From Nitrospirota bacterium (GTDB lineage: Bacteria > Nitrospirota > UBA9217), in contig OY760142.1 in NCBI GenBank assembly GCA_963663225.1, positions 3,104,001 through 3,168,000 on the forward strand: a DNA stretch of 64,000 bases, read 5' to 3'. The first letter of the stretch is position 1; each line of letters starts with the position of its first letter. The position numbers and the translations under genes are program-made. Positions 3,891 through 62,784 of the stretch are shown piece by piece. Under the pieces are notes generated by a model, which saw only the letters and a list, made by a program, of their open reading frames with translations, made no database searches and was not told the origin of the DNA.

Positions 3891-5105
3891 TTATTTACCC
3901 GCCAATGCACCCATCTGGAATATCGGCATGTACATGGCTACAATCACAAATCCAACTGTTATGCCCAAAAAAATCATAAGCATGGGTTCCAACAGAGAAG
4001 TAAGTGTCGCCACCGCGGAATCCACTTCATCATCATAAAAATCTGCAATCTTGTTTAGCATGTTATCCAAAGCTCCGGTTGCTTCTCCAACGGCAATCAT
4101 CTGGGTAACCATTGCAGGAAATATTTTTGACTTACCAAGTGGCTCTGCGAGCGTTTTACCTTCGCTTACGCTCTGTCTGGTGGAAACAATTGCATTCTCC
4201 ACAATTTTATTGCCTGCTGTCCGGGATACGATCAGCAATCCTTCGAGAATAGGTACACCACTCGTCATCAACGTGCCGAGCGTACGGGTAAATTTCGCCA
4301 CAGACACTTTCTGTATTAAATCACCAAAAACAGGCACTTTCAATGCAATACTATCCGTCATGATCAAACCTTTAGTTGTTTTTCTGAATTGTCTGAGTCC
4401 TACAAAAAAACCGATGATAGCTATCAATAAAGCAAGACCGCCCCATCCCTTGAGGAAATTACTGATGCCAATCACAATACGCGTGGGCAACGGCAAAGCC
4501 TGACCCATATCAGCAAACATGCCGGCCAGCATGGGAACCACTACGATCATAAGAAGCGTCACAACAGCCACTGCGACAAATAAAATGACCGCAGGATAGA
4601 TCATTGCCGACTTTACCTGGCTTTTTATCTTGGCGAATTTTTCCATATACGCTGCAAGCCGCTGCAAAATGGTATCAAGAATACCACCGGCCTCGCCTGC
4701 TGCAACCATGTTAACATAAAGATTGTCAAATACTTTGGGATGTTTTTTGAGTGCCTCTGCAAAAGTGGCACCGCTCTCAACGTCTGACCTGACTTGAGTA
4801 ATGACTTTTGCAAGTGCCTTACTATCGGTCTGGCTGCCCAGAATATCAAGGCATTGCACGAGCGGCAAGCCTGCATCAATCATAGTGGCAAGCTGACGGG
4901 TAAGAATTACTACATCTTTGTCGGTAACTTTCTTTTCGCCGAATTTTAATTTAAGTTCCTTTGGTTTGGCAGCCACATTGATTGGCAGAATGTTCTGCTT
5001 GCGAAGGAGGGCGATAACATCTTCTTTGCTGTTTGCCGCAAGCTCGCCTTTTTGCACCGTACCCTGGCGTGTTTTTCCTTCCCATATATATACACTTGTA
5101 GCCAT
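3891..5105 (-). CDS. pilC: Type IV pilus platform protein PilC
   Basis: T2SS-F family motifs TRQLATMIDAGLPL, AGEAGGILD, MYMPIF. Confidence 0.95.
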   Translation of the reverse strand: MATSVYIWEGKTRQGTVQKGELAANSKEDVIALLRKQNILPINVAAKPKELKLKFGEKKVTDKDVVILTRQLATMIDAGLPLVQCLDILGSQTDSKALAKVITQVRSDVESGATFAEALKKHPKVFDNLYVNMVAAGEAGGILDTILQRLAAYMEKFAKIKSQVKSAMIYPAVILFVAVAVVTLLMIVVVPMLAGMFADMGQALPLPTRIVIGISNFLKGWGGLALLIAIIGFFVGLRQFRKTTKGLIMTDSIALKVPVFGDLIQKVSVAKFTRTLGTLMTSGVPILEGLLIVSRTAGNKIVENAIVSTRQSVSEGKTLAEPLGKSKIFPAMVTQMIAVGEATGALDNMLNKIADFYDDEVDSAVATLTSLLEPMLMIFLGITVGFVIVAMYMPIFQMGALAGK

Positions 5106-35568: not shown

Positions 35569-36415
35569 GGAGATAATCATGGCCTCTCTTGCAAGCATTT
35601 TTGCGAAACCGAACTCAGGCGTAAGCGATAGCGATGCAACAAACAGATTATTAAGCGCGAGGGCGGGAGTTACCAATACCACGATGAACATGATACCGCG
35701 TTCTGGTTTTGCCGCCCCTCTTGTGTCTGGACTGCTTGGGTATCAGACTGCGGGGCAAGAAATTGATGCTGAAGGGCAAAAGAAAATGACAGATTTCTTG
35801 TCTACGTTTCAAAAGCTCTCCAGGGTAAGCAAGCTGATGGCCGTGAAGTTTTTTAACGAGAACGGCCCCGAAGTAGGAATTGATGCACCGATAGATGGGG
35901 TTGAGTCACAGCCTGATATTACGTCGGCCCACTTTAAAGACGGCCACATTGTCGGACTTGGTATGGACGGAATTTATATGCCTGGACCGGATGGGAAATG
36001 GACACCTGCTACATCTGACTTTCTAGACCAGTTAAGACAAGATAATCTTACAAAAAAGAAGTCAAGCGGCGGGTCCGGAAGCACAGAAAAACGCACAACG
36101 GTATTAAATTCGTATACCAACATAAATCAAAAAATTATTTCAGCAACAAATAATATGGTTGGCCAGACGGCAACGCAAAAAGTACAGACTCAAGCCGTTA
36201 TTGATGACCTTGTTCGTCAAAAAAAGAATATGGAAAAATTGTACCCTTGGCTTGTCGATAAATCTGCCGCACCGACAGGAGAAGTCGCCCCCGCACCGCC
36301 CGCACCAGCGCCGGCAGCCAATAATAACGACACGCTCGGCAGCATACTGAAAAGATTACAGCCAAACTATACCCAAAGCCCCTTACAAGCTGACGATAAT
36401 GGACTGTATAAATGA
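35561..36415 (+). CDS. Internal virion/ejection protein
   Basis: Lies between ejection-type genes; start may be ATG at 35579. Confidence 0.55.
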   Translation: MDKEIIMASLASIFAKPNSGVSDSDATNRLLSARAGVTNTTMNMIPRSGFAAPLVSGLLGYQTAGQEIDAEGQKKMTDFLSTFQKLSRVSKLMAVKFFNENGPEVGIDAPIDGVESQPDITSAHFKDGHIVGLGMDGIYMPGPDGKWTPATSDFLDQLRQDNLTKKKSSGGSGSTEKRTTVLNSYTNINQKIISATNNMVGQTATQKVQTQAVIDDLVRQKKNMEKLYPWLVDKSAAPTGEVAPAPPAPAPAANNNDTLGSILKRLQPNYTQSPLQADDNGLYK

Positions 36416-39400
36416 GCGAATGGGACGACATTATTGCAGACAAGAGATTTATTGATCTGCCCGACGAGGACAAGCAGAAGGTTGCCGATATTTATTTTAA
36501 CGATAAGATTGTAACCGATAGACGTTGGAGTGAATTGGACCAGGCGACACAGGATCAGGTACGCACCGAATTTATGAAGTCTGTTTCCCCTGCCCCCATA
36601 CAGCAATCCGTTCCGGCTACAGTATCGTCCATGCCGTCCACGGCTTTGATTACGAAAGGCCCCGAGGATATATACTCCTCATTCGGTAGTGGCGTTAATA
36701 CGGCTGCGGCGACTATGGCCAAAGGCATGGATTCTATTGCGACGTATATAAGCGAGAAAACCGGATTACCAAAAGGCGGACTATTCGAAAAAGCAGCAAA
36801 GGAATATGAATCAAACGCCGCATATTGGAACCAGAAGATTAAGGAGAACGGTGTTGATGCGATCACGCAGATTGTAGGCAAAGCTGCCGGCGGAGCGGTC
36901 CCCGGTCTTGCAGATTTTGCGTTAGGACCAGCGTATTACGGCGTAAAGGGCGCGGCGGAAGCCGGAAATAAGGGTGAATCAGAAGCGTGGGGCGCTTTCA
37001 AAGGGGCGTCAGAGCGGTACATTACCGGCAGAGTTCTTGAAGCGCTGAATATGCTTAAAATGGCGTACCGTATCCCTGGTATGGGCGGACTTGGCGCCGC
37101 ACAAGCGACCGTAGAGGGCGGAGATGTGGCCGAAAGCGCCGGCACCATGGCGCTGTATGGCATCATGGGTCCGCGTGGGGGAATGGGCCCAAAAGACGTT
37201 GTGAGAGAGTTTAAATCTTCGATGGCAACGGGAGAGGGCACACCGGCCCCTATCCCTGAACCTCCCGCCGGTCCTCCTCCTACCGGCGGGGCTCCTAATG
37301 AAACCGCGCAGGGCGGCGAACGACGTACGAATCAAACGCTCCGCGATATGATATCAGATTATGAAACACGCGCAGTCGGCGGCGACAGAGAATCATTGCA
37401 GCATCTTATTGACTCCGGAGTTTGGGGCGATCCTCTTACCGGGCTCCTGAATAAAAACGGAATAGAAAAAATGAGGCCAGCCGTCGATGCGAAGCCGGAT
37501 AAATTTTATCTCGACCTCGACAACTTTAAGCAGATTAACGACAAGCTTACTCATGCCGGAGGCGATCAGATAATTTCCGAAGTCGGCAAAAAAATGCGCG
37601 AGATTTTTTCTGAGGACGATATTGCCGCACGGCATGGCGGGGATGAGTTTTCCGGAGGCGGGACAGCGCTTGCAGGAAAACTCGAACGATTGAGAAGTGA
37701 CCTTGAAAATGCTATAATTCAAATCAGAATACCAAAGGGCTCGGAGTTTCCTAAAGATAGCGGAAACATTCTGCAGAACGATCTTGTCCTTGAGCAGCCG
37801 GGTATAAGGTTGTCTTTTGGTGTTGGGAAAACGAATGAGGAGGCTTACAATGCGAACACCGCAAATAAAAGTGAAAGGCTTAAAGCTGGCCTCCGTACCG
37901 AACGCAACAAAGCGGCTTCCGACGTTGGGACAGCTGTCGAAGATATTACCAAAGGGATCCAAGTTCCTGGGGATCAAGTGGCCAGAGGCAGCCAAAGCGC
38001 CACAGCTACCGCAGATAGACCAGCAACAGCCGGAAGAATAGAATTACCTACCCCTGAGAAAATCACTCATAATCCGAACGCTGCAGACAATAAGTGGCCT
38101 TCTGGTAAATTTCGAGAACACGCCCCATTCTCCGAAGAGGACAAAGGTTGGCTTAACGATCTTCGCTCTCTCATCGCCGGTATTGAAGCGCCCGGCAAGC
38201 TTAACCCGAACGGAACAGTATCAACCTCTACCCTGCCCCCTCACCTGAGAAGCCTTGGACTGACCAAAGCCGATTATGACGTTGTGAATATGGCTTCTAA
38301 GGGCGAGCCTATTACCTGGAACCAGTACGTTAAAATTCAATCTTGGGTTGAAGAGCATAAAGTTGCGTTTGGCTTCCGGCCGGGTGAAGGATGGCCAAAG
38401 CCAGAGGATTTTTTTAAAGACGACTTTGTGACCGATGAAGAAGTGCCTTTTGAACGCGGGGCTCCCGGCGATTTTAAACTTACTCCGGACGAGCAAAAAC
38501 CACAAAAACAGAAGCCGCAACAGCAGGGCCTTAACCTTGGTATGAAGGGCGAAGATATGAGAGCGCCCAAAAAAGAGGGTCCGGGCGTTACGATGGATGA
38601 AACAGAGCTTGGCAAGGCCACGAACGCGGCCAAGGACCGCGAGGCGCAAGAGCGGCTATTTGACGCATCAAACTATGATCCGGCTGCAGTTCATTCCGAA
38701 ATGGAAATGCCGGAGATTGTGCAGCTGGTCAAAAAATTAACCGACCGATATCCTCAAGTCAACAAAGGCAAGATATCCGTGGCCATTGGGAAGGCCATAG
38801 GTTTTTTCGAGCCGTCAACCCGTCGCATTGTAATTTCGAATCACCTGTCAGAATTTGAAGGCTTGGCAGAGCGCGTCTTGGCGCATGAGCTTGGCCATGC
38901 CGTAGACTTCTCCGGCGCTCCGGGTAACGAAACAATGAGCCGCGGCAATATCCTTGGACGCATTGCATCACTCCGAAAGTATATGCAAGACCTTCTCGAA
39001 GAGCACCCTGGGGCAACCGAGGGCATACTTACTGATGCGGACCGAGCCCGGTTCGCGAAGGAAGCCGAGAGAATGGCAAAAGAGGAACAGGCTGGTCGGC
39101 AAGAAAGTGGCGGCACGGTCCCGCCCGAGGATATTCTTGCCATTTGGCGCGATGCGAGTGCGCGGGATAAAAACAAGGACCTGTACGACTATATTGCAAA
39201 GCTGTCCGCTGCGGAAAAGTCCAAAATCGTCAAGGACGCCATGAAGGGCATATCAAATATCACCCTGCGGGATCAGATTGCCGGCGGACATTACGAGCGC
39301 CTTGCACAGCGCGAGAAGGAAATATACCAAGACCTGCTCCGCCAGGAAATCATTAAACGGCGTCTGTATGAAAAAGAAACCATCATGGACGAGTTGAAAA

Positions 39401-42249
39401 AACTCACTCAAATAATCAAGCCGTTCGATGATGGCATAAACCCCGCAATTACGAAATACCGCTATTCTTCGCAAGAACTGTACGCCGATGCCGTATCACA
39501 GTTGCTTGTCGATCCTTCCCTACTCAAGAACACCGCCCCGACATTTCATAAGGCGTTTATGAGTTACCTTGAACGGAAGCCGGATTTTAAAGCCGAATGG
39601 GACCGGCTGCAGGATCTTGCCAAGGACCGCGAGGATATTCTATCTGAACGCCAGCAAAGAACATACGAGGGATATAAAGAACAAGAGGATTTGATTGCAG
39701 AGAACAGCAAGGAGCGCAAAATTCCGCTCATGCACGAAGTATTTAAGGCCCTGGTTGAGAAGAACGCGGATCTTTACGAAAAGGTAAAAGAAGTAAAGCG
39801 GCGCGACGGCGTTATTGAAGATACCAAAAACCCTCGCTACTGGACTGAACAATTACCGTATATAAATGGCCCCGTATTTACGTTTCTGCATGATGTGAAT
39901 GGCAAGGTAATGAACATTTCCAAGAAGCACAATATTACCCTTGATCAAATCGGAGAAATTTTCGAGCGGATGAGGGTTTCGACAGAACGGAAGAACATAC
40001 CGAACCCCGGCGGAATGACCGAGAAAACATCATTGGACGCCCTGGGAAAGTTAAAAGCAGATTTGGGGCCGGAGAGATTTGACGCTTTAAAGAAGGCCTA
40101 TGATGATTTTCAGTCTGCTTGGCAAAAACACGTTGTCGACAAAGTGCGGGAAGCTAATATGTGGAGCAAGGAACTGCAGGAATACGCCGAGAAAAACCTT
40201 AACTATGCCACCTTCCAGCACGTTCGGGAGTTTACCGGGAAACTCGAAGAACAAATAGGATACGAGAACAGCGCCAGGGTTTTTAAGCAGGTAGGCACAT
40301 TCGCGGAAATTCGCAACCCCTTTGTGGCCACCATTATGAAGGGCATGGCATTAGTGCGCGCTGCCGAAATTAACATGGCTAAAAAGGCAACCACGGATTT
40401 TTTGCTTAGAAACTTCGGGTCCGACACCATTCAAAAGGCAAAAGGCCGCTTTAATGGCAAATTCATGGAGTTTAAGAACGTGGACAGCGAAAAGGTCGGG
40501 ACCATCGTTTACATGGAAGAGGGAAAACTTCATGCCTATTACGTTCCGAAAGGAATAGCTGAATCGTTTGAGCGCGAGCCGCATATGGCGCAAATGATCA
40601 TGCGCGTATGGAATTTGATGAACGTGCCAATTCGCAATATCCTCGTTAGCCGCAATCCCCTCTGGATGGCGTTTAACGTGCCAAGAGACTTTATCGAAAC
40701 ATGGAAAAATACTCCGGACCTTACCATGTTCAAATTATTGCAGCGGTACGCCCAGGCCGTGCCTCATGCGTATAAAGAGGCATTTAAGGGAGAGCTTACG
40801 CCGACGGTTCGCAAGATGTACGAGAACAAGGAGCTTGTTATAGAGCGACATTTCCGGACGCTCGAAACCGACGATCCCATGAACGAGCTTAAAGATACTA
40901 TGCGGTCCTTTGGGCTGGCCCCGCAGCGGTACAACAATATCGTCTTAAAACCACTCAAAGCATTGTGGGACTTCCTTGGCAATACGGGGAAGTTTACAGA
41001 ACGGCTTGGCAAGGTTGCCGGATCCATAGAACTGCAGGAGCGGGTGAACCGTGGAACCATGGGACAAATGGAGAAGGCGCACCGCGTTAGACAACTGGTA
41101 GGCACTCCCGATATTCATGCTGGCGGATATTTAAAGCCGTTTTACAATAATATTTTCCTCTTCTCCAACGTGGCGATGAGAGGCTTCTATGCTTCGTATG
41201 AGGCATTTAGGGCCCGGCCGGTCGACTATCTGTGGAAAACAACGAAGTACAATGTAATGCCAAAATTGGTCATGGCTGCAGCTGCGGCCGGATTGCTCGG
41301 TGATGAGTTAAAGAAAATATATGCGGGGGTTTCTGAATACTACAAGACGAATTATCAGGTTATACCTCTTGGTCTTACCGAGAAGGGGAAGAGCGTTATT
41401 ATAACCCTTCCGCAAGACTACGCCGGCACGGGCATAGGGGCATTGGTTTGGAAGGCGTCTCAAGGGAAGTGGGTCGGTAAAAAAGGAATGACCGCGGCTA
41501 TGGTCCAGCAAACGCCGTATAGCTTTAATCCCCTGCTTAAAGTTGGCGCGGACTTGGCAAACTACCTTTCCGCGTCCCAGGTCTACGATGATTACAGGGG
41601 GAAAACGGTAATTTCCGACACCGAGGCGAAGGCTGCGGATTGGCATACCGCAATAAAGCTGGCAAAGTACGAGGCCGGACAGCTTGGGGCGAACGCTGTC
41701 TATCGGTTTGAATATGACGATCCTGCCCGCGTGAAATCGGACTTGGAAAAAATGCTCGACTATCCGCCCGGAAATGTTATTGGCAGATATCTAAAGGTGA
41801 CGGATTACGGGAACAGAGAGCAGCTTGAAGAGGTGACGGATCCTGTACAGCAAAAGGCCGCGCGAAGAACACTAAAAATAAACGACAAGATTAAAGACAG
41901 CATCCGTGAGTCCGGCGGCAAGTATGACGAAAAGAACATAGAGGACTTGTACGAGAAATTAAGAAACGATGGAACTCTTGAGCCGGGAGCCTCCGGATCA
42001 ACATTCAGGCAATTTAAGGCGAAGTACAACCGGTTTGCAGAGGGAAGATTTGACAATTACAAAATAGACGCCTTTGTGAAGGCGACAACAAGCGATGAAA
42101 AAGCCGCGCTGCTGAGTCACTATAAAGACATTATGCCGGCCAAAGAGTATGACGCCCTGTATGATCAGCTTATCGAAGAGGGTTTTTTAAAACGAGGGAC
42201 CGTGAAGTCTCTGAATCGAATGAACGAAAGGGAGGGCAGCAAGAAATGA
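36412..42249 (+). CDS. Large polyvalent ejection protein with GGDEF and zincin (HExxH) domains
   Basis: 1945 aa, last structural gene before lysis; DPLTGLLN...DLDNFKQIND...HAGGD...ARHGGDEF; LAHELGHAVD...ELYAD; LPD38-like C-terminal region. Confidence 0.85.
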   Translation: MSEWDDIIADKRFIDLPDEDKQKVADIYFNDKIVTDRRWSELDQATQDQVRTEFMKSVSPAPIQQSVPATVSSMPSTALITKGPEDIYSSFGSGVNTAAATMAKGMDSIATYISEKTGLPKGGLFEKAAKEYESNAAYWNQKIKENGVDAITQIVGKAAGGAVPGLADFALGPAYYGVKGAAEAGNKGESEAWGAFKGASERYITGRVLEALNMLKMAYRIPGMGGLGAAQATVEGGDVAESAGTMALYGIMGPRGGMGPKDVVREFKSSMATGEGTPAPIPEPPAGPPPTGGAPNETAQGGERRTNQTLRDMISDYETRAVGGDRESLQHLIDSGVWGDPLTGLLNKNGIEKMRPAVDAKPDKFYLDLDNFKQINDKLTHAGGDQIISEVGKKMREIFSEDDIAARHGGDEFSGGGTALAGKLERLRSDLENAIIQIRIPKGSEFPKDSGNILQNDLVLEQPGIRLSFGVGKTNEEAYNANTANKSERLKAGLRTERNKAASDVGTAVEDITKGIQVPGDQVARGSQSATATADRPATAGRIELPTPEKITHNPNAADNKWPSGKFREHAPFSEEDKGWLNDLRSLIAGIEAPGKLNPNGTVSTSTLPPHLRSLGLTKADYDVVNMASKGEPITWNQYVKIQSWVEEHKVAFGFRPGEGWPKPEDFFKDDFVTDEEVPFERGAPGDFKLTPDEQKPQKQKPQQQGLNLGMKGEDMRAPKKEGPGVTMDETELGKATNAAKDREAQERLFDASNYDPAAVHSEMEMPEIVQLVKKLTDRYPQVNKGKISVAIGKAIGFFEPSTRRIVISNHLSEFEGLAERVLAHELGHAVDFSGAPGNETMSRGNILGRIASLRKYMQDLLEEHPGATEGILTDADRARFAKEAERMAKEEQAGRQESGGTVPPEDILAIWRDASARDKNKDLYDYIAKLSAAEKSKIVKDAMKGISNITLRDQIAGGHYERLAQREKEIYQDLLRQEIIKRRLYEKETIMDELKKLTQIIKPFDDGINPAITKYRYSSQELYADAVSQLLVDPSLLKNTAPTFHKAFMSYLERKPDFKAEWDRLQDLAKDREDILSERQQRTYEGYKEQEDLIAENSKERKIPLMHEVFKALVEKNADLYEKVKEVKRRDGVIEDTKNPRYWTEQLPYINGPVFTFLHDVNGKVMNISKKHNITLDQIGEIFERMRVSTERKNIPNPGGMTEKTSLDALGKLKADLGPERFDALKKAYDDFQSAWQKHVVDKVREANMWSKELQEYAEKNLNYATFQHVREFTGKLEEQIGYENSARVFKQVGTFAEIRNPFVATIMKGMALVRAAEINMAKKATTDFLLRNFGSDTIQKAKGRFNGKFMEFKNVDSEKVGTIVYMEEGKLHAYYVPKGIAESFEREPHMAQMIMRVWNLMNVPIRNILVSRNPLWMAFNVPRDFIETWKNTPDLTMFKLLQRYAQAVPHAYKEAFKGELTPTVRKMYENKELVIERHFRTLETDDPMNELKDTMRSFGLAPQRYNNIVLKPLKALWDFLGNTGKFTERLGKVAGSIELQERVNRGTMGQMEKAHRVRQLVGTPDIHAGGYLKPFYNNIFLFSNVAMRGFYASYEAFRARPVDYLWKTTKYNVMPKLVMAAAAAGLLGDELKKIYAGVSEYYKTNYQVIPLGLTEKGKSVIITLPQDYAGTGIGALVWKASQGKWVGKKGMTAAMVQQTPYSFNPLLKVGADLANYLSASQVYDDYRGKTVISDTEAKAADWHTAIKLAKYEAGQLGANAVYRFEYDDPARVKSDLEKMLDYPPGNVIGRYLKVTDYGNREQLEEVTDPVQQKAARRTLKINDKIKDSIRESGGKYDEKNIEDLYEKLRNDGTLEPGASGSTFRQFKAKYNRFAEGRFDNYKIDAFVKATTSDEKAALLSHYKDIMPAKEYDALYDQLIEEGFLKRGTVKSLNRMNEREGSKK

Positions 42250-50133: not shown

Positions 50134-50661
50134 ATGCCGGTATGCCCTAATTGTGGGGTTGAGTTTGACGAAAATAAAAAGCAAAGCATACCGTACGCAG
50201 AAATCATAGAGGACCTTAACGCGGTATGCAGATTTAAAGAGCGCGGAAAAAAGGGGTTTTCTCATAAATCAAGCTCTAACCAGCGTCTTATTAATGGGCG
50301 GTGGAAAGATGGGTATAGACTCGACGACTTTAAGGCGGTCCATAGAAATATGGCCGCCAAGTGGCTTGACGATCCCAAAATGGAACAGTTTCTACGACCG
50401 GTTACGCTGTACTGTGCCAGTAAGTTTGAGGGATATTTAAGTCTAAGCCTAAACTCTGACAAGAAGGCGGACATATTCACGGCGCTGTGTGATGCCATGG
50501 ATAAGAAAGAAGCTCCGAAAGATGAGATTGCCCGGAAGGTTGGTTTTATGATAGGATGGGACCGGGTAAAAAGTCTGCTGCAGTCCGAGGCCGGGCGCGA
50601 TGCCTTGAAAACTCCTTTTGACCGGGCATATAAAACGGTTATAGCGGAGATGGAAAAATGA
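50134..50661 (+). CDS. Phage replication-initiator-related protein (Phg_2220_C-like)
   Basis: LINGRWKDGY..DDFKAV...KW..DPKMEQFLRPVTLY..SKFEGYL. Confidence 0.75.
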   Translation: MPVCPNCGVEFDENKKQSIPYAEIIEDLNAVCRFKERGKKGFSHKSSSNQRLINGRWKDGYRLDDFKAVHRNMAAKWLDDPKMEQFLRPVTLYCASKFEGYLSLSLNSDKKADIFTALCDAMDKKEAPKDEIARKVGFMIGWDRVKSLLQSEAGRDALKTPFDRAYKTVIAEMEK

Positions 50662-51131
50662 ATATATTGGCTCTTGACCTTGCTACTCGGACCGGGTGGG
50701 CGCTCGAAGAGAACGGGCGGCGCGAATCCGGAGTGCAGGTTTTTGATGTTAAGCGCGGGGAATCTCCGGGTATGCGATTTGTTAGGTTTAATCGCTGGCT
50801 TGATGAAATGGCAAAAATAATCACAAGGCCATGCGTAGTCGTATTTGAGCAAGCGCATCACCGAGGAGGAGCGGCGACCGAATGTGCTGCGGGATTCTCT
50901 ACGAGAGTTCTTGAGTTCTGCGCGACACATGGATTCGAGCATTCATCTGTTCACACTCAAACGCTCAAGAAGTTCGCAACCGGATCCGGGCGCGGAGATA
51001 AAAGCGCCATGATTGCTGCGGCCAGGGTTAAGCTTGGATTTGCCGGCGACGACGACAACGAGGCCGATGCTCTTTGGCTTCTGGAATTCGCGAAAAAAGA
51101 GATTGTAGGGGGAGTGCCATGCCAAAGGTAG
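50658..51131 (+). CDS. RuvC-like Holliday junction resolvase
   Basis: ILALDLAT.TGWA, VVFE, TLKKFATG.G...KSAM, DDNEADA. Confidence 0.85.
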   Translation: MNILALDLATRTGWALEENGRRESGVQVFDVKRGESPGMRFVRFNRWLDEMAKIITRPCVVVFEQAHHRGGAATECAAGFSTRVLEFCATHGFEHSSVHTQTLKKFATGSGRGDKSAMIAAARVKLGFAGDDDNEADALWLLEFAKKEIVGGVPCQR

Positions 51132-51316
51132 TCAATGATGCAAAGAAGTCTTATATTTTAATCAAAGTTTCTCCGTCTGAAAAAGAGAGATTCGAAAAGC
51201 TGTCACGGCGTCTGAATGACGGAGAGGAAAACACCCTTTCCCGCACCATTCGGCAGCTGCTTCGGAAAAAATACCGCGAAACCTTCCCCGAGGAGTTCGA
51301 ACAATCCGGGGATTAG
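51119..51316 (+). CDS. Ribbon-helix-helix DNA-binding protein
   Basis: ILIKVSPSEKERFEKL...TLSRTIRQLL (beta-alpha-alpha). Confidence 0.7.
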   Translation: MPKVVNDAKKSYILIKVSPSEKERFEKLSRRLNDGEENTLSRTIRQLLRKKYRETFPEEFEQSGD

Positions 51317-51330
51317 TCCCCGGATTTTAT
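51303..51330. terminator. Terminator between convergent operons
   Basis: AATCCGGGGA-ttag-TCCCCGGATT-TT. Confidence 0.75.
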
Positions 51331-51770
51331 TCTGTGACCTTTGAAGGTAGATAGCCAAGTTTTCCGCGCAACTCATTAATCCCCTGTATTTTCCTCTGCT
51401 GCGAGCTCAACCAATTACCGTTTAAACGATACCCAAGTTGAGCAACAATAGCCTCTGATCTTGCATCGAGAAACAGCACTTGATAGCTTGCAAGATAAGG
51501 CGACAAATCCCAGGACTTAACGAAGGAATATTTTACAAGCATATCTGCCGGCAAAGGCTTTTCTGGTGGTTTTTTGTTATAAACCTGAAATCCCATGTCG
51601 CCCAGCTCGCTGATCAGAAATGTTCCTATATTAAATTCATCTTCCGGGGCCATCTCAATGTAGGCGTTTTTGTAAGACTTGAAATCTCTGTCAGGCATAA
51701 CCAGCGCATTATTTACAGCACAACCAGAAAAGAAGAAGAGGAAAAAAACAAGGCAGGATAATCTTTTCAT
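51327..51770 (-). CDS. Lipoprotein (moron-like)
   Basis: Lipobox FSG-C; last gene of the leftward operon. Confidence 0.75.
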   Translation of the reverse strand: MKRLSCLVFFLFFFSGCAVNNALVMPDRDFKSYKNAYIEMAPEDEFNIGTFLISELGDMGFQVYNKKPPEKPLPADMLVKYSFVKSWDLSPYLASYQVLFLDARSEAIVAQLGYRLNGNWLSSQQRKIQGINELRGKLGYLPSKVTE

Positions 51771-51795
51771 ATAAACCCCCTTTAGTGAGGAGGCG

Positions 51796-52137
51796 CTAAC
51801 CTCCCCTTGAAAGTCTATGCCGAGATATCCATAGTTTGACTTTAGTTATTGGTAAAGTAAAGTGCTCTGGAAGTGGTGCAATTATATCATTCTTAAATTC
51901 CTGATGCAAGCGCAAAGCATCCCCTTCGTCAAGGCCCATATCTAAAAGTATGGCAAGGGCCAGCTGCGCGGGACCGCTGCCGCCATATCCCCAGGCAAAC
52001 CCGTCCGGGCTGTGATTAAACGCCTTCTGACTTGGCCGCGGGTCCAAGTTGCGACCGCGGATCACCCGGCGCGTGTCTGGCTCTCCGTGATACGCTTCGG
52101 GCGGTTTAGGGTATTCTGATCCAAGTATTGTCGTCAT
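51796..52137 (-). CDS. DUF6166-like phage protein
   Basis: NHSPDGFAWGYGGSGPAQLALAIL. Confidence 0.8.
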   Translation of the reverse strand: MTTILGSEYPKPPEAYHGEPDTRRVIRGRNLDPRPSQKAFNHSPDGFAWGYGGSGPAQLALAILLDMGLDEGDALRLHQEFKNDIIAPLPEHFTLPITKVKLWISRHRLSRGG

Positions 52138-52370
52138 AGTTTTATTTCCTCCTGCCTCGGTACAATCTTTGCGATGATAGACGGGTCAGCCTCGATCATT
52201 TCAATCGTGTTCTTTTTCGCCTGTTCAAACCCTTTTCCGTGGTTCTTACCGCCGCATATACACCGGCACTTGTCATGCTTGGCATTATAGCACGTTGCAT
52301 CACATCTACGCGTACTTCCATTGCTGTTGTGATTTATTATAAGAGTAGCCATTATTTCACCTCCTCCCAT
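52134..52370 (-). CDS. Small Cys-rich phage protein
   Basis: CDATCYNA...CRCICGGKNHG. Confidence 0.7.
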   Translation of the reverse strand: MGGGEIMATLIINHNSNGSTRRCDATCYNAKHDKCRCICGGKNHGKGFEQAKKNTIEMIEADPSIIAKIVPRQEEIKL

Positions 52371-52372
52371 TA

Positions 52373-52795
52373 TTAAAATCTGAAACCAACTCCAATTTGA
52401 TAGTTTCGATAAACCTGATTTGCTTCAATCCCTATCCATACAGCTTGCCATACCTGCCGCGCCGGGATCTTCACGCCGAGGAATTCAATCTTTTTCGGCA
52501 GCGCGTACGCAATTGCAGCGTGGCCCACAATAGCAAGGGCAAAATAAGTGTTCACCCTGCCCTTGCTTGGATACCGGCCAAGTATAGGGTTTGTTTCTGC
52601 ATAGCAAACATGGCGCGATGGCTCAATTTTTCTGTGGTACTGTGTCGCCCAGGATGTTTGGCCCCAATCAACGACGATCAGCCCAATTGTGACCGCTTCT
52701 CCAATTGTGTCTACTGCGTCCCATTTGTCCGGCCATGCTTCCGCGCTGGCTGCGAGTCCGAGAGTTAATAAAATTGCAAGAGTTATATTTTTCAT
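52373..52795 (-). CDS. Exported/envelope phage protein immediately downstream of the hammerhead
   Basis: Signal peptide (AEA-W), DWGQT...ETNPILG, C-terminal GVGFRF. Confidence 0.75.
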   Translation of the reverse strand: MKNITLAILLTLGLAASAEAWPDKWDAVDTIGEAVTIGLIVVDWGQTSWATQYHRKIEPSRHVCYAETNPILGRYPSKGRVNTYFALAIVGHAAIAYALPKKIEFLGVKIPARQVWQAVWIGIEANQVYRNYQIGVGFRF

Positions 52796-52800
52796 TTTCG

Positions 52801-52857
52801 GGCCTCCTCAGTTGCCGCATGACGACAAGACGGGGTCAGCTGCGCCCCGTTTCGGCC
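52801..52857 (-). ncRNA. Type II hammerhead ribozyme
   Basis: Minus strand GGCC-GAAA-CGGGG(cgcagcuga)CCCCG-UC^UUGUCG(ucaug)CGGCAA-CUGAGGA-GGCC: all core nucleotides and three stems present; GUC cleavage site between 52829 and 52828. Confidence 0.88.
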
Positions 52858-52858
52858 T

Positions 52859-53230
52859 TTAATATTCTTCCGGCAGCATGATCGTAAAACCTTCATATTC
52901 GCTGAATACCAGCCACATTTTTTTTGTAACACCCTTCCCCGGAGATGTTTGATAAATTACCCTGAATTCAACAAGGCGCTTGTCTCCCTTGTCTTTTCTG
53001 AAAGCGTGTGCAGCCATATATAGAGTGTCCCAAAGTCTCCCCTTGTAATCCTGCATACCCCTGAGCGATTCGGGGACGTTAACAAGCGAGTGAACGCCAC
53101 AGGTCAGACAAATAGGAATTTTAAAACCGGCTTCTTTCGCTTCGCTCGTTTCGGATACGTCAATCAGTTGTCCGTCCTCAATAGCCTGTTTTCTGGTATA
53201 GGTGCTTATGACTTCTGAATTTTGAAACAT
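52859..53230 (-). CDS. DUF6573-like phage protein
   Basis: Likely start MFQNSEVISTYTRKQAIEDG...GRLWD...TIMLPEEY; SD AAGGAGG. Confidence 0.75.
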   Translation of the reverse strand: MFQNSEVISTYTRKQAIEDGQLIDVSETSEAKEAGFKIPICLTCGVHSLVNVPESLRGMQDYKGRLWDTLYMAAHAFRKDKGDKRLVEFRVIYQTSPGKGVTKKMWLVFSEYEGFTIMLPEEY

Positions 53231-53247
53231 ATCTATCCTCCTTTCAG

Positions 53248-53463
53248 TTAAGGAATATAAACACATCCCTCAACGAAAAAATTGGTTACGTCTGATTCCT
53301 GCGCCCGTTGGCTATTCATCCAGCGTACGCTTCCGGGCTCGCAGCGCCGGTGCCGGTATTTGTCTTGCCCGATGTATACCGGCTCACCGGTGATTTTGTG
53401 GCTGCAAACATAGCAGACTTGCAGCGTTCGGCGTTCTTTGGGTTCGTCAAGTTTGCGCCTCAT
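53248..53463 (-). CDS. Small Zn-binding phage protein
   Basis: CYVC...HRRC; purine-rich SD. Confidence 0.55.
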   Translation of the reverse strand: MRRKLDEPKERRTLQVCYVCSHKITGEPVYIGQDKYRHRRCEPGSVRWMNSQRAQESDVTNFFVEGCVYIP

Positions 53464-53477
53464 CGTAATTTCCCCCC

Positions 53478-53690
53478 TTAATAAATGAAAGTCGCGCCGG
53501 ACTGCGCCTCTTCGATTTTTGCTTCTCGTTCTCGTCGTGACAAACCTTCTTCTTTCATATCGTCTTCGTCAAGCAATACCACGCTCAGGTTGATCTTAGA
53601 TAATGCCTTGTTCACGGTTGAATCTACGGAAACAGCACGTAAACATCCGCCCTCAATGTGCACGTATATCTTACCCACCTTCTTTGCCAT
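53478..53690 (-). CDS. Phage hypothetical protein
   Basis: IYVHIEGG...LLDED; SD AAGGAGG. Confidence 0.7.
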   Translation of the reverse strand: MAKKVGKIYVHIEGGCLRAVSVDSTVNKALSKINLSVVLLDEDDMKEEGLSRREREAKIEEAQSGATFIY

Positions 53691-53758
53691 GTCCCTGCCC
53701 TCCTTTGCCGGATTAACTGCTTTATGAGCGCCCCGATGATCGGAGCGCCGAAAAGAAG

Positions 53759-53899
53759 TTAATACATGGTTTTATCCTCCTTTTCTTCCATTTCTTCATG
53801 ATCTGCGAAAACTTCAAGCATGCCTTGAAGTGCAGAGCATAGGGCCGCCGCTGCATCCTTCAAGATGGCTTCTTTGTTTATCCTCCTGCTTTTTAACAT
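53759..53899 (-). CDS. 46-aa phage hypothetical protein
   Basis: Manual translation MLKSRRINKEA...EDKTMY*; SD GAGGAG. Confidence 0.45.
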   Translation of the reverse strand: MLKSRRINKEAILKDAAAALCSALQGMLEVFADHEEMEEKEDKTMY

Positions 53900-54091
53900 G
53901 GGCTTTTGTCTCCTCTCTTTGAATTGTCGCTTTAATAATCCTGTCTATCTCTGCGATGCGTCCGGGGCTTATCATGGCAGCACCATGCGAAAAACTATAC
54001 TGTTTATCAAGTTGTCGATCTGCTGCGCTATCCAGTACAAAACCCCGCCAATGATGCCGATTAAAATAAAAGCTGTTGAGTGGTTCATGGC

Positions 54092-54289
54092 TTAACCCTC
54101 CTGCTTTTCTGCTGCGTGGTGCATTTCGCTGTCTTGTACGGCTCCGTCAAAGTCTATGCCTGCCCGGTCGCAGTAGTGCCGCAGGTCAGCCAGCAAATCA
54201 GTAACATTGGCTTCTGGTACGTCCTCATAGAATGTCAAAGCGTTTTCTGCTCTGGTTGCTCGTTCTTCATTGGATACTGTGAGCTTCAT
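54092..54289 (-). CDS. Phage hypothetical protein
   Basis: NEERATRA...TDLLADLRHYCD..GIDF. Confidence 0.7.
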   Translation of the reverse strand: MKLTVSNEERATRAENALTFYEDVPEANVTDLLADLRHYCDRAGIDFDGAVQDSEMHHAAEKQEG

Positions 54290-54369
54290 ACTGTCCCCTT
54301 TCTCCTGCCGGATTTAAAAGCACTCTATAAAGCGCCGGGGCTGCATAGTCCGGCGCTCAAACAATGGTT

Positions 54370-54930
54370 TTACCAGCTTGAGTGATAGGAATAGTCAACC
54401 CTGCTGTCGTCTGGTTCGGACAATGCGGACTCAAGGATTTTGATTGTGTCGTCGATATCCTGTATATAGTATTCGTCGTACTCTGTGGAACCGAAGAAAA
54501 AGCCTGATTCTGTTGGCAGTAGTGCTGCGGCTATTTCCGGGTTACTCAAGATTTTTCCGGGCTCATAATGGTGTACTTTTTCTCCCTTTTCATCAAACGT
54601 GTACCCGGTTGAAACCGGCCCGTCAATAAGCGTGGTTTTCTCTTTTATTTCTTTGCAAATATCGAGAAGAGATTGCAATTGCTCCCTTGACACATAAGCA
54701 TCCCGGCAGTCGTCCTCTCCGCTCTGACAGTTCGCAACAAACCACTTGTGAATATGGTTAGCCTTGCACCAATAGCCGATATCTTCCGAAATCTCTTTGA
54801 TACGTTCTGCCTTTATGTGTCCTACAGGCGTATCATTCTGTAAAACGGTTACGGTGTGGCGTTCTTCTGGCTTCATGTAATCCCAATTTTTAACGTAGGT
54901 TTTTTTGGTCAGGTACATATCAAGTCCCAT
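54370..54930 (-). CDS. Conserved phage early protein
   Basis: MGLDMYL...YWCKANHIHKWFV...LLPTESGFFFGS.EYDEYY...YHSSW. Confidence 0.85.
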   Translation of the reverse strand: MGLDMYLTKKTYVKNWDYMKPEERHTVTVLQNDTPVGHIKAERIKEISEDIGYWCKANHIHKWFVANCQSGEDDCRDAYVSREQLQSLLDICKEIKEKTTLIDGPVSTGYTFDEKGEKVHHYEPGKILSNPEIAAALLPTESGFFFGSTEYDEYYIQDIDDTIKILESALSEPDDSRVDYSYHSSW

Positions 54931-54953
54931 GTTATTTGTCTCCCTTCTATGGT

Positions 54954-55124
54954 TTACGCTCCGGATTTAACGGATACGGTTAATCTTGCCGGCGGGTTGG
55001 CGCCCAGGGCATACTTCTTGACGTACAGCGTCCCGATCTTCGGTTGTATAGTGTCCTCCTCCTCATAAACGTATGTGCCCTTGGTTTCCTTCTTCAGCTT
55101 GAAAGTCGTCGTAAAGTCTGCCAT
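54954..55124 (-). CDS. 56-aa phage hypothetical protein
   Basis: Manual translation MADFTTTFKLKKETKGTYVYEE...TLYVKKYALG...; SD GGGAGG. Confidence 0.65.
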   Translation of the reverse strand: MADFTTTFKLKKETKGTYVYEEEDTIQPKIGTLYVKKYALGANPPARLTVSVKSGA

Positions 55125-55160
55125 GGTGCGCCTCCCCTTTTCTTTGGTCTGTGTTTGTGT

Positions 55161-55466
55161 TTATGCTGCTGCCGTTACTGCCTTGATGCCGCCCTTTTCC
55201 CGCTGGTAAATAAGCCACTCGTAAGCCGTAGGTTCCTTGATGTGCAGAACCATGGCTAAAATAGCCGCTGCATCCGCAAGCGTAATGTTGTGCGCCTTCA
55301 TCGCAACACTCGCAAAGCGTACCATTGCTGATTTGCCCGGTACTTTCGCAAAGCGATATGCGGTGATCAGGTCAAGGCGAGAGTACAAAGAGCGCTGGTA
55401 CCGGAGCAATCGCAGCGTGTAGCCTTTTGTTGCCAGCAATCCGAGATTCTTTCCTGTTATGGCCAT
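55161..55466 (-). CDS. First gene of the leftward operon, hypothetical
   Basis: SD AGGAGGTGA, downstream of a consensus promoter. Confidence 0.7.
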   Translation of the reverse strand: MAITGKNLGLLATKGYTLRLLRYQRSLYSRLDLITAYRFAKVPGKSAMVRFASVAMKAHNITLADAAAILAMVLHIKEPTAYEWLIYQREKGGIKAVTAAA

Positions 55467-55528
55467 AAGCGTTTATTCACCTCCTTTCTTTACTATATTA
55501 CTATATCGTTATTACATTGTTAATATAT

Positions 55529-55556
55529 ATTATAATAAGGTATATACCATTGTCAA
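55529..55556 (-). promoter_or_regulatory. Consensus sigma70 promoter of the leftward operon
   Basis: Minus strand TTGACA-16bp-TATAAT with GGTATATACC palindrome in the spacer. Confidence 0.75.
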
Positions 55557-55939
55557 GTAAAAAAATAGCAGAGAGTGCAAATATATTTCTGCAACAATCT
55601 GCTTTTTGGCATAGAATATGCAATATATCTATATATATATAAATATATGTAAATATATCTATTTACTTATATATAGATATAAATAAATAAGAATCTTTAA
55701 AATCTTTATAATAATAGATACACACCTTTTTCTTTTGCTTCTTTTCTTTTTAAAAAGGTGAAGGTGCAATTATTGATGCTGCCGATCTGAAGCGGTATAA
55801 ATCGGAATGACTAAAACAGGGAATCCAGAGGATAGAGGGAAACCCATTATTCAAGAGCTTTTCTCGTATGCGTATGAAACAAGCACGGCAAAAAGGCATA
55901 TAAAAACAATGTGTTGTATAAGTATCTGATAACATAACA

Positions 55940-55967
55940 ATGTCGCAGAATGTAGATTATGTCAAAT
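55940..55967 (+). other. dif-like (XerC/XerD) site 1
   Basis: ATGTCGCAGAA-TGTAGA-TTATGTCAAAT, 11-6-11, compared with E. coli dif GGTGCGCATAA-TGTATA-TTATGTTAAAT. Confidence 0.7.
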
Positions 55968-56001
55968 ACTAACATATTGATATATAAAGAAATGTTCACC
56001 A

Positions 56002-56029
56002 TTTCTACACAATAAATATTATGTCAAAT
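56002..56029 (+). other. dif-like site 2
   Basis: TTTCTACACAA-TAAATA-TTATGTCAAAT; XerD arm identical to site 1, direct orientation, 62 bp offset. Confidence 0.55.
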
Positions 56030-56345
56030 GCAACAATATGCAAAACAGGTATAAAAGTGTTGCAAAATAGACACACTTTCGATCTGGATTGACCTTAAAA
56101 TGGTCAGATATCGGCTTCCAGGCCAAAGACCCCCCCTACCCCCGCCCCTCACGCTTCCGGAGTCCCCCCTATTTTCGATTTTCCTCCCATACCATGAGTG
56201 TTTCCATTAAATAATACTTTGGTATCAAATTTGAGGCCTTTCCGTTCGAATTCCGGGGGTGTCTGTTTTTGAAATTTTTTTCCCGGAAAAATTCCATGGG
56301 GTTTTTGGGGTGGATAATTAAATTCCATTTTGTAATACTTTAGTA

Positions 56346-56524
56346 TTGACATTTGGAAAAAACGTGGTAGAGTTTGAAATGTCGGCAGGACAGGACGGTT
56401 TCATCATCTTTGACATATCAGCATTGGCATTTTTGGTTTCGGCGCACCAGCCGAATTGAAAGGCCGCCTGTAAATTGGTCCTCATCCTGCCGGATTGAAG
56501 ATTTAAACAGGCGGCTTTTCTTAT
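56346..56524 (+). promoter_or_regulatory. Rightward promoter plus attenuator-like leader
   Basis: TTGACA-16bp-TAGAGT (extended -10 TG), then a leader ending in AAAGGCCGCCTGT...ACAGGCGGCTTTT. Confidence 0.65.
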
Positions 56525-58771: not shown

Positions 58772-59524
58772 ATGATTGCGTACAAACTCACGTCACAGGA
58801 TTTTATGACTCGTAATAATACAATATGGGGCAATAATATTACTCATAGTGTACCCAAAAAAGATAATCCCCAATTATGTACAGGGGATGTAGTCCACTGG
58901 TATAAATCTCCTACGCTGGCGTTATTATTGAATCCACAGCACGCCGATATTACAAATCCTGTACTTTGGGAGGCAGAAGCTGACTGTGAAGCAGTATCGG
59001 ATTGGGGAAAATCAGGATGCTTCTCACTCACCACCAAACGTATTATCCGCACAAAAATAACAGATGACCAAATGCACCATATTAGAGTGCAATTTGCAGT
59101 TCTCTGTGCAGAATCCGTATTACATTTATACGAAAAACAGTACCCTATCGATGATAGGGTAAAAAAAGCTATTGAAGCAGCAAAAGAATATTTAAAAAAT
59201 CCAACCGCCGATGCCGCCGCCGATGCCGCCGCCGATGCCGCCTATGCCGCCGATGCCGCCGCCCGTGCCGCCCGTGCCGCCGATGCCGCCCGTGCCGCCG
59301 ATGCCGCCTATGCCGCCTATGCCGCCCGTGCCGCCGATGCCGCCTATGCCGCCTATGCCGCCTATGCCGCCCGTGCCGCCTATGCCGCCTATGCCGCCGC
59401 CTATGCCGCCTATGCCGCCGCCCGTGCCGCCGATGCCGCCTATGCCGCCTATGCCGCCCGTGCCGCCGCCATAGACTTTAATGAATTAGCCAACAAAGCT
59501 TTTATGCTTGTTATGAGTAAATAG
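58772..59524 (+). CDS. Phage protein with Imm5-like segment and Ala-rich repeat tail
   Basis: FAVLCAESVLHLYEK.YP.DDRVKKAIEAAKEY followed by AAY/AAD/AAR repeats. Confidence 0.75.
   Translation: MIAYKLTSQDFMTRNNTIWGNNITHSVPKKDNPQLCTGDVVHWYKSPTLALLLNPQHADITNPVLWEAEADCEAVSDWGKSGCFSLTTKRIIRTKITDDQMHHIRVQFAVLCAESVLHLYEKQYPIDDRVKKAIEAAKEYLKNPTADAAADAAADAAYAADAAARAARAADAARAADAAYAAYAARAADAAYAAYAAYAARAAYAAYAAAYAAYAAARAADAAYAAYAARAAAIDFNELANKAFMLVMSK
59207..59470 (+). repeat. In-frame GCC-based minisatellite
   Basis: 88 codons using only GCC, GAT, TAT and CGT. Confidence 0.95.
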
Positions 59525-60800: not shown

Positions 60801-60995
60801 ATGGAATCAGTCGAGCGCGAATTGCAGGAAATAAAAGCGGCCATTTTATCAATTGGCAATACGGTTACGGAGATAGCCTCTAATCTTGAACGCCATGGAA
60901 TAGGAGCACACAAAAAGGCTAACATCGTAGAAATAAAAGATTGGGCAAAAAAACAGGCGGAGCGTCATGTCAATAAAACCAGTAGGAAAAGATAA
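60801..60995 (+). CDS. Small protein overlapping the integrase start (possible excisionase/RDF)
   Basis: Assigned by position only; TTGACA-17bp-TAAAAT just upstream. Confidence 0.4.
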   Translation: MESVERELQEIKAAILSIGNTVTEIASNLERHGIGAHKKANIVEIKDWAKKQAERHVNKTSRKR

Positions 60996-62019
60996 GTGGG
61001 AGCTTGACATAAGCCTGGGCTACGTCGATGGCGCTCAACATAGAGTAAGGCGAATATTTTCAGGAACGCAAGAGAACGCCGTAATTGCTGAGATTGAACT
61101 TACCAAACAACTCGGAAAGCCTTCAGTAGAAAGAAAAAAAATTGAGGACTTTACAGAAGAATATCTTGAATGGGTTGGCAAATACCAGAGCGAAAAAACA
61201 TACCACGATAAAAAGAAAATGCTATTCGGCTATCTATTGCCCTTCTTTGGCAATATGCGGCCAGATTTCATAACAAAGAGCTTACTTGAAGCATACCAAA
61301 CCAGCAGACTAAACGCTCCAATAAAATTTTCGAAGCACGGAAAGCCATTAAAACAATACAAAAGGTCCCGCGCCGTTAATCTTGAAATACTCTGCCTGTC
61401 CTCAATGATTGAATGGGGAAGAGAACACGGATATTGCGTCGATCCTCTCGTAAAAATCAAACCACTACCGTATAAAAAACCGCTTCCAAGTGTATTGTCC
61501 GCTGAGGAAATAAAATCTTTTCTGTCTGAGTGTCCCCCTGTTTATAAAGCCTATCTTTTGGCCCTGTATCATTGCGGCATGAGAAAGAATGAGGCTAAAA
61601 ATTTAAAATGGACAGATGTAGATTTTGAACGCGGTATTATTCATATTATCGGAAAAGGCAACAAAGAGCGTATTGTGGGGTTGACGGATACGCTTAAAGA
61701 ATCTCTGCAGTCGTTACAGAGGGCCGATATTCGTGTTTTCGTTTCGCCGAGGACAAATATGCCGATTGGGGATATAAGAAAGACGATTGAATCGGCAAGA
61801 AAGCGCGCCGGGATCCAGCGGCACATAAATCCTCACCTACTACGGCATACTTTTGCAACTCATTTGCTTGAACTCGATGTTGATTTAAGGACCATTCAGG
61901 ACCTTCTTGGCCACGCCGATGTAAGCACAACCCAAATTTACACCCATGTTTCGATAAACAGGATATTGAGCGCAGCCAAAGCGCTTGATGAAGCGCTAAA
62001 GAAGAAAGGAATAGCATAG
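60967..62019 (+). CDS. int: Tyrosine integrase
   Basis: CGMRKNE, GKGNKER, PHLLRHTFAT, LLGHADVSTTQIY; about 700 bp from the att site. Confidence 0.95.
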   Translation: MSIKPVGKDKWELDISLGYVDGAQHRVRRIFSGTQENAVIAEIELTKQLGKPSVERKKIEDFTEEYLEWVGKYQSEKTYHDKKKMLFGYLLPFFGNMRPDFITKSLLEAYQTSRLNAPIKFSKHGKPLKQYKRSRAVNLEILCLSSMIEWGREHGYCVDPLVKIKPLPYKKPLPSVLSAEEIKSFLSECPPVYKAYLLALYHCGMRKNEAKNLKWTDVDFERGIIHIIGKGNKERIVGLTDTLKESLQSLQRADIRVFVSPRTNMPIGDIRKTIESARKRAGIQRHINPHLLRHTFATHLLELDVDLRTIQDLLGHADVSTTQIYTHVSINRILSAAKALDEALKKKGIA

Positions 62020-62709: not shown

Positions 62710-62784
62710 TGGAGCCGGCGGTCAGGATTGAACTGACGACCTGCTGATTACGAATCAGCTGCTCTACCACTGAGCTACGCCGGC
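62710..62784 (-). tRNA. tRNA-Thr(CGT), intact, contains the right att junction
   Basis: GCCGGCGTAGCTCAGTGGTAGAGCAGCTGATT-CGT-AATCAGCAGGTCGTCAGTTCAATCCTGACCGCCGGCTCCA; cloverleaf with encoded CCA. Confidence 0.97.

Follow-up and report, generated by a model that had tools for sequence, protein, structure and literature searches.

Type II hammerhead ribozymes have been reported between small prophage genes near integrases (Perreault et al. 2011, PMC3088659), and a similar context for bacterial hammerheads is given in a later review (De la Peña 2017, PMC6155905). Three type II hammerheads of Desulfovibrio vulgaris cleave both in vivo and in vitro (cyPhyRNA-seq, PMC8782182), by a chemistry that leaves 2',3'-cyclic phosphate and 5'-OH ends (PMC8782182). 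Thousands of bacterial and phage hammerheads are now known, and reviews describe their function as open (PMC6155905, PMC6765202). In engineered platforms, hammerhead or twister ribozymes sequester the Shine-Dalgarno (SD) sequence and cleavage alters access to it (Wieland and Hartig 2008, cited in PMC5052635); a ribozyme-gated SD has so far been realised only by such synthetic design (PMC5052635). Self-cleaving ribozymes also lie just upstream of open reading frames (ORFs) in fungal and plant RNA viruses, where a part in translation initiation has been proposed (PMC13725137). Here we describe a predicted type II hammerhead in a 64,000-nucleotide (nt) stretch of a Nitrospirota bacterium genome (contig OY760142.1, positions 3,104,001 to 3,168,000; hereafter the window). 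The element lies on the minus strand between two prophage genes, and its catalytic core supplies the candidate SD of the downstream gene. We consider it probable, from the sequence comparisons set out below, that this is a working-type hammerhead of a family found in phage intergenic gaps, placed within a leftward prophage operon, whose core is put to double use as an SD.

The window element shares with the Rfam Hammerhead_II family (RF02276) and the type II ribozymes of Perreault et al. the core strings CUGANGA, GAAA and GUC, capped stems I and III, and a short, open stem II. It differs from RF02276 in stem II, which is GGCC/GGCC where the Rfam consensus has a 2-bp stem and an AGCC tail, and in loop I, a 3-5 nt apex of the form G-U-N-A-N-G-C in place of a loop of ~10 nt. 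Unlike most type II hammerheads, its subfamily gives no support for a pseudoknot between loop I and the 3' tail, and a G at the free core position N7 turns the core into an SD. As described for the D. vulgaris ribozymes (PMC8782182), it sits near hypothetical and phage-like genes on a bacterial chromosome, a likeness of description. With the engineered platforms it has in common an SD inside the ribozyme fold. There, however, an anti-SD has been introduced by design, and an extended stem I, P1 or P3 holds it paired with the SD (PMC5052635), whereas in the window it consists of the natural core and stem II, and gating is only proposed. As in the RNA viruses, a hammerhead fills a small intergenic untranslated region and would cut a few nucleotides before a start codon. 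Those viral elements are eukaryotic type I hammerheads with cap- or internal ribosome entry site-type initiation, and involve neither an SD nor a DNA phage (PMC13725137). The literature searched contained no account of a natural hammerhead with a core that doubles as an SD, although Dataset S1 of Perreault et al. may hold cases. The word 'Shine' is absent from PMC3088659, PMC6765202 and PMC8782182, and a text search of PMC8782182 gave 0 occurrences of ribosome-binding and start-codon terms. Judged by its sequence, the window element adds a new member to a ribozyme class already known. The subfamily that has N7=G and carries an SD is a new variant, though a modest one, and bears on what phage hammerheads do.

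The hammerhead takes up the 63 nt between the TAA stop codon (52861-52859) of the upstream gene, P0002, and the ATG (52795-52793) of the downstream gene, P0001 (Table 1). Every constant core position carries the consensus residue and all three stems are perfect, with 7 (or 6), 4 and 6 bp abutting the core for stems I, II and III, respectively. The connectivity is that of type II: stems I and III are capped, stem II forms from both ends of the element, and the G10.1-C11.1 pair is present. The A15.1-U16.1 pair is formed by A52850 with U52830. GUC at 52831-52829 provides the N-U-H cleavage triplet, with C rather than G at position 17. Stem I comprises five variable pairs topped by G-U-C-A-U-G-C, in agreement with the family consensus G-U-N-A-N-G-C. 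A first-pass annotation, made from the letters alone, had already proposed a complete type II hammerhead here with cleavage between 52829 and 52828, and a GAGGAGG motif drawn from core and stem II 7 nt before the AUG. All core residues and the three stems were found where it had placed them, C17 is nucleotide 52829, and the coordinates and spacing of the motif were confirmed. The predicted 3' product would start with a 5'-OH at U52828.

Table 1. Positions of the hammerhead, its parts and the surrounding features in the window.
Feature	Position	Strand	Basis or remark
Type II hammerhead ribozyme	52801..52858	(-)	sequence, strict descriptor, custom model R1
A 5' of stem II	52858	(-)	directly after TAA; 1 nt between stop and stem II
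Stem II 3' strand GGCC	52857-52854	(-)	sequence
Catalytic core G12-A15.1 = GAAA	52850..52853	(-)	sequence
Stem-loop III, ACGGGG/CCCCGU (52850-52845 with 52835-52830), 6 bp, 9-nt loop CGCAGCUGA	52830..52850	(-)	
Predicted cleavage site, 3' of C17 (52829)	52828..52829	(-)	GUC placement relative to stems III and I
Stem-loop I, UUGUCG(U)/(G)CGGCAA, loop (U)CAU(G)	52812..52828	(-)	sequence, strict descriptor
Catalytic core C3-A9 = CUGAGGA, N7 = G	52805..52811	(-)	sequence
Stem II 5' strand GGCC	52804-52801	(-)	followed by spacer CGAAA, then AUG 52795-52793
Candidate Shine-Dalgarno AGGAGG (A6, G7, G8, A9, G10.1, G10.2)	52803..52808	(-)	7 nt upstream of AUG
Downstream gene P0001, 140 aa, apparent N-terminal signal peptide	52373..52795	(-)	translation read by eye
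Upstream gene P0002 (DUF6573), TAA stop 1 nt before stem II	52859..53266	(-)	Pfam PF20213, 61.5 bits
P0003 (small Cys-rich protein) and P0004 (DUF6166), would ride on 3' cleavage product	51796..52370	(-)	
Terminator-like hairpin after P0004, candidate operon end	51776..51792	(-)	consensus match only
Sigma-70-like promoter TTGACA-16-TATAAT, 12/12, candidate leftward-operon start	55529..55556	(-)	consensus match only
Phage integrase, marks prophage end	60967..62019	(+)	Pfam PF00589, 132 bits
tRNA gene beside integrase	62713..62784	(-)	Rfam tRNA, 71.7 bits

A strict descriptor was applied to both strands of the 3,255,001-base genome, demanding the core strings, the A15.1-U16.1 pair, a base other than G at position 17, and stems I, II and III of at least 4, 3 and 5 bp. 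It returned a single site, 52801..52858 of the window. Twelve first-order Markov copies of the genome yielded 2 loose matches in total and 0 with stems of 6/4/6 or better. A looser descriptor covering types I to III gave only weak background matches in the genome and no second site in the window.

Relatives were sought in viral contigs with a pattern copied from the window element, GGCCGAAAC-gap-GTC-gap-CTGAGGAGGCC, which matched 18 stretches. Both variable stems lay directly against the core in 15 of these, pairing being absent from the search pattern, and two of the other three reached 46.6 and 50.4 bits with the covariance model described below. Allowing A, C or U at N7 returned at least 120 viral stretches, with many copies on several contigs. 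Among the matches listed, to which the member counts given from here on also refer, 134 of 162 instances (window included; 126 unique) passed the descriptor with both variable stems formed. In an alignment (A1) of 39 diverse viral members, with the window excluded, 9 of 17 pairs showed changes on both sides, over 149 cells. Pairing held in 99.4% of A1 cells against 35-47% with partners slid by 1-3 columns, a percentage that is partly by construction because the A1 rows were pre-selected for pairing, so that the 134/162 pass rate is the fairer measure.

A covariance model built from A1 (R1, 55 positions, window excluded) matched the window element over model positions 1-55 of 55 at 61.7 bits (E 1.9e-15), the next match in the window reaching 15.1 bits. 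Across 98 viral loci scanned (of 138), R1 gave 138 matches of 29-75 bits, a range that includes the window score. Part of this score is by construction, since the search pattern had fixed about half of the model positions. Agreement extends to features outside the pattern, however. An A stands 5' of stem II in 125/125 viral members and in the window, and the window stem lengths of 7/4/6 agree with those of the viral family. Over 98 viral members, the stem I apex carries U in 98/98, the central A in 73/98 and G in 92/98.

The phage family belongs to the Rfam class, with this subfamily lying mostly under the Rfam threshold. Over 10 loci with 22 listed pattern matches, a search at the gathering score returned Hammerhead_II 4 times, twice at a pattern match; only these two pattern members, at 37.3 and 38.3 bits, reach the gathering score. 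The Hammerhead_II threshold thereby misses most of a large phage subfamily, which matters for annotation. Both members lie in one 8.5-kb viral contig (L046) that holds at least 11 hammerheads, made up of 7 pattern matches and further R1 matches at 174-236, 411-473, 889-947 and 4739-4794. On this contig a ribozyme apparently sits beside nearly every small gene.

We also weighed whether the window element might be a chance look-alike or a dead relic, in which a G+C-rich hairpin after the upstream gene, another hairpin and a normal SD together spell a hammerhead by coincidence and nothing is cut. Several results speak for this and against our interpretation. At the gathering score Rfam found only the tRNA in the whole window and no hammerhead, and an E-value search of 451 nt gave only a spurious scaRNA match. 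RF02276 run across the genome itself missed the site and gave 4 weak matches elsewhere (150/493 candidates scored). A Hammerhead_II match appeared at 24.0 bits (E 0.0024) with an 86-nt input alone, below the gathering cut-off of 37. Five unrelated sites in 64 related genomes reach the same 21-24 bits while failing the descriptor, so the Rfam score by itself is uninformative. The GAGGA of the core comes free with any SD of this kind, and the fold energy is ordinary (z = -0.81; 43/200 shuffles equal or better). The family sample itself came from a search pattern derived from the window element. The window holds one hammerhead, where many phage contigs have several. Very many windows were screened, and a match of this quality, put at ~1 in 300 genomes by a rough Markov extrapolation, could arise somewhere by chance.

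Comparison with homologous loci adds to these points. Searching the flanking-gene DNA against 61 genomes, the source genome among them, gave no orthologous locus with a ribozyme, and no hammerhead was found beside any P0001 or P0002 homologue. Two loci with P0001 homologues lacked a hammerhead; the P0001 search gave 1 locus in the viral contigs and no homologue in the genome contigs. DUF6573 homologues in five related loci (L006, L008, L009, L010 and L014; 64-68% identical protein) are all followed by a G+C-rich terminator-type hairpin, GAGCCCCGGA...TCCGGGGCTC; the DUF6573 gene of the window is followed instead by the ribozyme and further genes. By BLAST against a phage database, the 1-kb locus had no match and the 86-nt element had 6 chance-level matches (E = 3), over the SD and start part only.

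We nevertheless judge a look-alike or relic very improbable. The R1 score and E-value, the agreement in the 5' A, stem I apex and stem lengths, and the lack of any core deviation all argue against it. The prophage context is fitting, and stem-loop III is not called terminator-like, as no T run follows it. The element very probably cleaves in the cell, on the strength of its sequence and that of its relatives.

Across 64 genomes of the same taxonomic family, RF02276 found one true hammerhead, at 53.1 bits (L016:1501-1612). This canonical Rfam-type Hammerhead_II begins inside the upstream TAA, and its 3' tail is followed by AAGGAAAATCAACCAATG; tight packing of stop, ribozyme and start thus occurs in the classical subfamily as well. 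Within the same order, R1 matched 2/63 other genomes, on the minus strand at L161:1501-1559 (53.8 bits) and L162:1501-1559 (43.2 bits). In both, stem II starts with U-G, so that A9-U10.1-G10.2 spells AUG in a frame open for ~28 printed codons, and the start codon itself seems to lie inside the ribozyme. The L162 copy has mismatches in stem II.

The window core reads GAGGAGG because the free position N7 is G. The AGGAGG within it is the sole SD-like sequence ahead of the P0001 start, and it lies in the folded part of the ribozyme. The 16S tail of the host carries CCUCC, and the neighbouring genes examined have similar G-rich SD-like motifs before their ATG codons. Of 129 unique viral members listed, all with at least 200 nt of downstream sequence, 59 have C at N7, 51 have U, 16 have G and 3 have A. 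The start of the next gene was called in each member, window excluded, as the first ATG, GTG or TTG after A9 opening at least 40 codons. With start calls this crude, stem II fixed as GGCC in both the viral and the genome sample, and kinship among ribozymes ignored, a start lay at most 11 nt from A9 in 12/15 ORF-bearing viral members with N7=G, compared with 13/110 of the others (Fisher p 1e-7; median distances 7 and 32 nt). Retaining one member per downstream-sequence cluster left the association in place (10/12 vs 13/102, p 9e-7), and no cluster mixed G and non-G members. A 50-codon limit with the window included gave 10/12 and 11/95.

The same N7=G pattern had 16 instances in the genome contigs, of which 8 passed the descriptor; the 8 that failed include likely chance matches in coding sequence. 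Seven of the passing members had an ORF and five of these seven a start at most 11 nt away, two of the eight being identical in sequence to viral members. A plausible reason for the association is register. With a base other than G at N7, only GAGG (G8-G10.2) is left, too near an abutting start, whereas G at N7 supplies another GAGG register, 3 nt further upstream. That N7=G goes with an abutting start across the family argues that the double use of core and SD was selected.

These observations bear out the proposal of the first-pass annotation that the SD of the downstream gene is formed by core and stem II, and AGGAGG is quite probably used as such. The competing possibility that the ribozyme is active while ribosomes reach P0001 by coupling or at another start, leaving AGGAGG idle, appears very improbable to us. 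The P0002 stop is only 63 nt upstream, and in 3/15 N7=G viral members the ORF starts 30-68 nt away with its own SD. Between the window stop and AUG, however, there is no second SD-like sequence; AGGAGG and its 7-nt spacing resemble those of neighbouring genes; cleavage would part the two cistrons and so prevent coupling; and the association of N7=G with near starts holds. The window locus and ~20 N7=G relatives thus show the ribozyme physically linked to the site where translation of the next gene begins, and G occupies N7 chiefly in members whose start codon adjoins the ribozyme.

On the favoured interpretation, the prophage transcript would be cut after C17 (52829), parting the DUF6573 gene from a three-gene tail encoding a small protein (secreted or membrane-bound), a Cys-rich peptide and a protein with DUF6166. 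The upstream piece would end in a 2',3'-cyclic phosphate and the downstream piece would carry a 5'-OH and the stem I hairpin. The two should separate, because after the cut they are joined by the 4-bp stem II alone. Its duplex in trans is predicted at -8.3 kcal/mol, and that of the SD with an anti-SD string at -12.1. Release of the strand would leave AGGAGG single-stranded 7 nt ahead of the AUG. We hypothesized from this arrangement that N7=G type II hammerheads could be natural ribozyme-gated ribosome binding sites, with the SD locked until self-cleavage; conversely, a ribosome bound early would block folding of the ribozyme. If so, a phage could give the downstream cistrons of an operon their own timing and yield, independent of those upstream. 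Bacterial and phage hammerheads would gain a defined function, and the engineered SD-sequestering aptazymes a natural counterpart.

We regard gating of this kind, on present sequence comparisons, as rather unlikely. That cleavage raises or times downstream translation, and does not merely precede it, is possible but on balance doubtful. An effect on translation is uncertain because a 4-bp helix is a small obstacle to a ribosome and because folding in a longer context lacks stem II. The minimum free energy (MFE) fold of a 91-nt stretch has the same three helices as the hammerhead. Weighing against our interpretation, the MFE fold of a 171-nt context retains stems I and III, lacks stem II and has some of the SD paired to coding sequence, as does the fold of the predicted 3' product. 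Unpaired probabilities and energies, computed for the uncut and the cut RNA, were equivocal. With the SD partly paired both before and after cleavage, a simple picture of an SD hidden first and free afterwards has no thermodynamic support.

To the alternative that the ribozyme is active but purely a processing site we assign just short of an even chance. The SD overlap would then reflect genome packing, cleavage would leave translation unaffected, and ribosomes would open stem II equally well on uncut RNA. Any benefit would come from differing stabilities of the two mRNA halves, or there would be none. Polycistronic processing is the leading idea in reviews that call the function open (PMC6765202, PMC6155905). 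In most family members, whatever the N7 base, the ribozyme follows the upstream stop by -1 to 4 nt, which favours packing as a general tendency. Stem II is only 4 bp, and the folding predictions gave no clear change in SD exposure on cleavage. In a folded hammerhead, however, G8 and A9 are engaged in core contacts and G10.1-G10.2 in stem II, so that the ribosome should meet some competition. Bacterial translation is indeed gated by engineered hammerheads that hold the SD in a stem (PMC5052635), although these are other RNAs. If the overlap is mere packing, the window contains one more phage hammerhead.

The first-pass annotation had gone further, proposing a pseudoknot between loop I and the start codon that would speed cleavage, hide both AUG and SD, and make the ribozyme a timer or switch. 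Loop I UCAU is indeed complementary to AUGA over 4 bp. A pseudoknot of 4 bp or more joins loop I to the 3' tail in most type II hammerheads, with the partner directly downstream of stem II (Perreault et al. 2011, PMC3088659). The window AUGA, however, starts 5 nt beyond stem II and does not adjoin it. An uninterrupted run of at least 4 Watson-Crick pairs joining loop I to the tail's first 10 nt was possible in 13/126 members, compared with 9.9 +/- 3.2 when loops and tails were permuted (34/200 permutations reached 13). Allowing G-U pairs or a 16-nt tail left this result unchanged. UCAUG fits the family loop consensus U-N-A-N-G independently of the tail, and 3/7 unique members with this loop have no AUGA within the first 16 nt of tail. 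Two viral members, L028 and L033, do have UCAU in loop I and AUGA immediately after stem II, but there the ATG meets a stop two codons on and the ORF starts with GTG. The pseudoknot is thus unsupported at the level of the family, and we consider the full model built on it very improbable.

The near-invariant U·G and G-C pairs flanking the U-N-A-N-G loop suggest a different, sequence-specific contact. Both the invariant 5' A (52858 in the window) and the apex (52818-52824) are dispensable for secondary structure. From their conservation, the 5' A and the G-U-N-A-N-G-C apex may form a tertiary contact joining stem I to stem II in place of the usual type II pseudoknot.

The window holds a prophage, marked by an integrase adjoining a tRNA gene and by RecT and Phg_2220_C domains; the tRNA is the likely attachment site. 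The ribozyme falls within a minus-strand gene block between the candidate promoter (55556-55529) and the candidate terminator hairpin (51792-51776). Contigs from two runs aligned over 50500-56500 were near-identical, with no variants and no joints. P0001 had no Pfam, PHROG, PADLOC or NCBIfam match, and its nearest Atlas clusters, at a score of 0.94, are phage hypothetical proteins. With an apparent signal peptide as the remaining indication, the earlier label of 'envelope protein' was overstated. The proteins of the operon had no PADLOC match, and their only NCBIfam match was a sub-threshold lipoprotein match to P0005.

No SD precedes the start listed for P0002 (53266) or the one listed for P0003 (52370), and each gene has an internal ATG behind an SD-like sequence. 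From these motifs, the true starts are likelier to be 53230 for P0002 (the M13 codon, preceded by AAAGGAGG) and 52352 for P0003 (preceded by GGGAGGAGG). Near the integrase end, a plus-strand ORF of 250 aa (58772-59524) has an Imm-5-like immunity domain match at 27.9 bits (cut-off 25) and no PADLOC match. In the phage structural region, a plus-strand ORF of 1945 aa (36412-42249) matches the GGDEF (diguanylate cyclase) domain with 50.9 bits over residues 340-413, which is unusual for a giant protein that resembles the tail or tape-measure type by its size and place.

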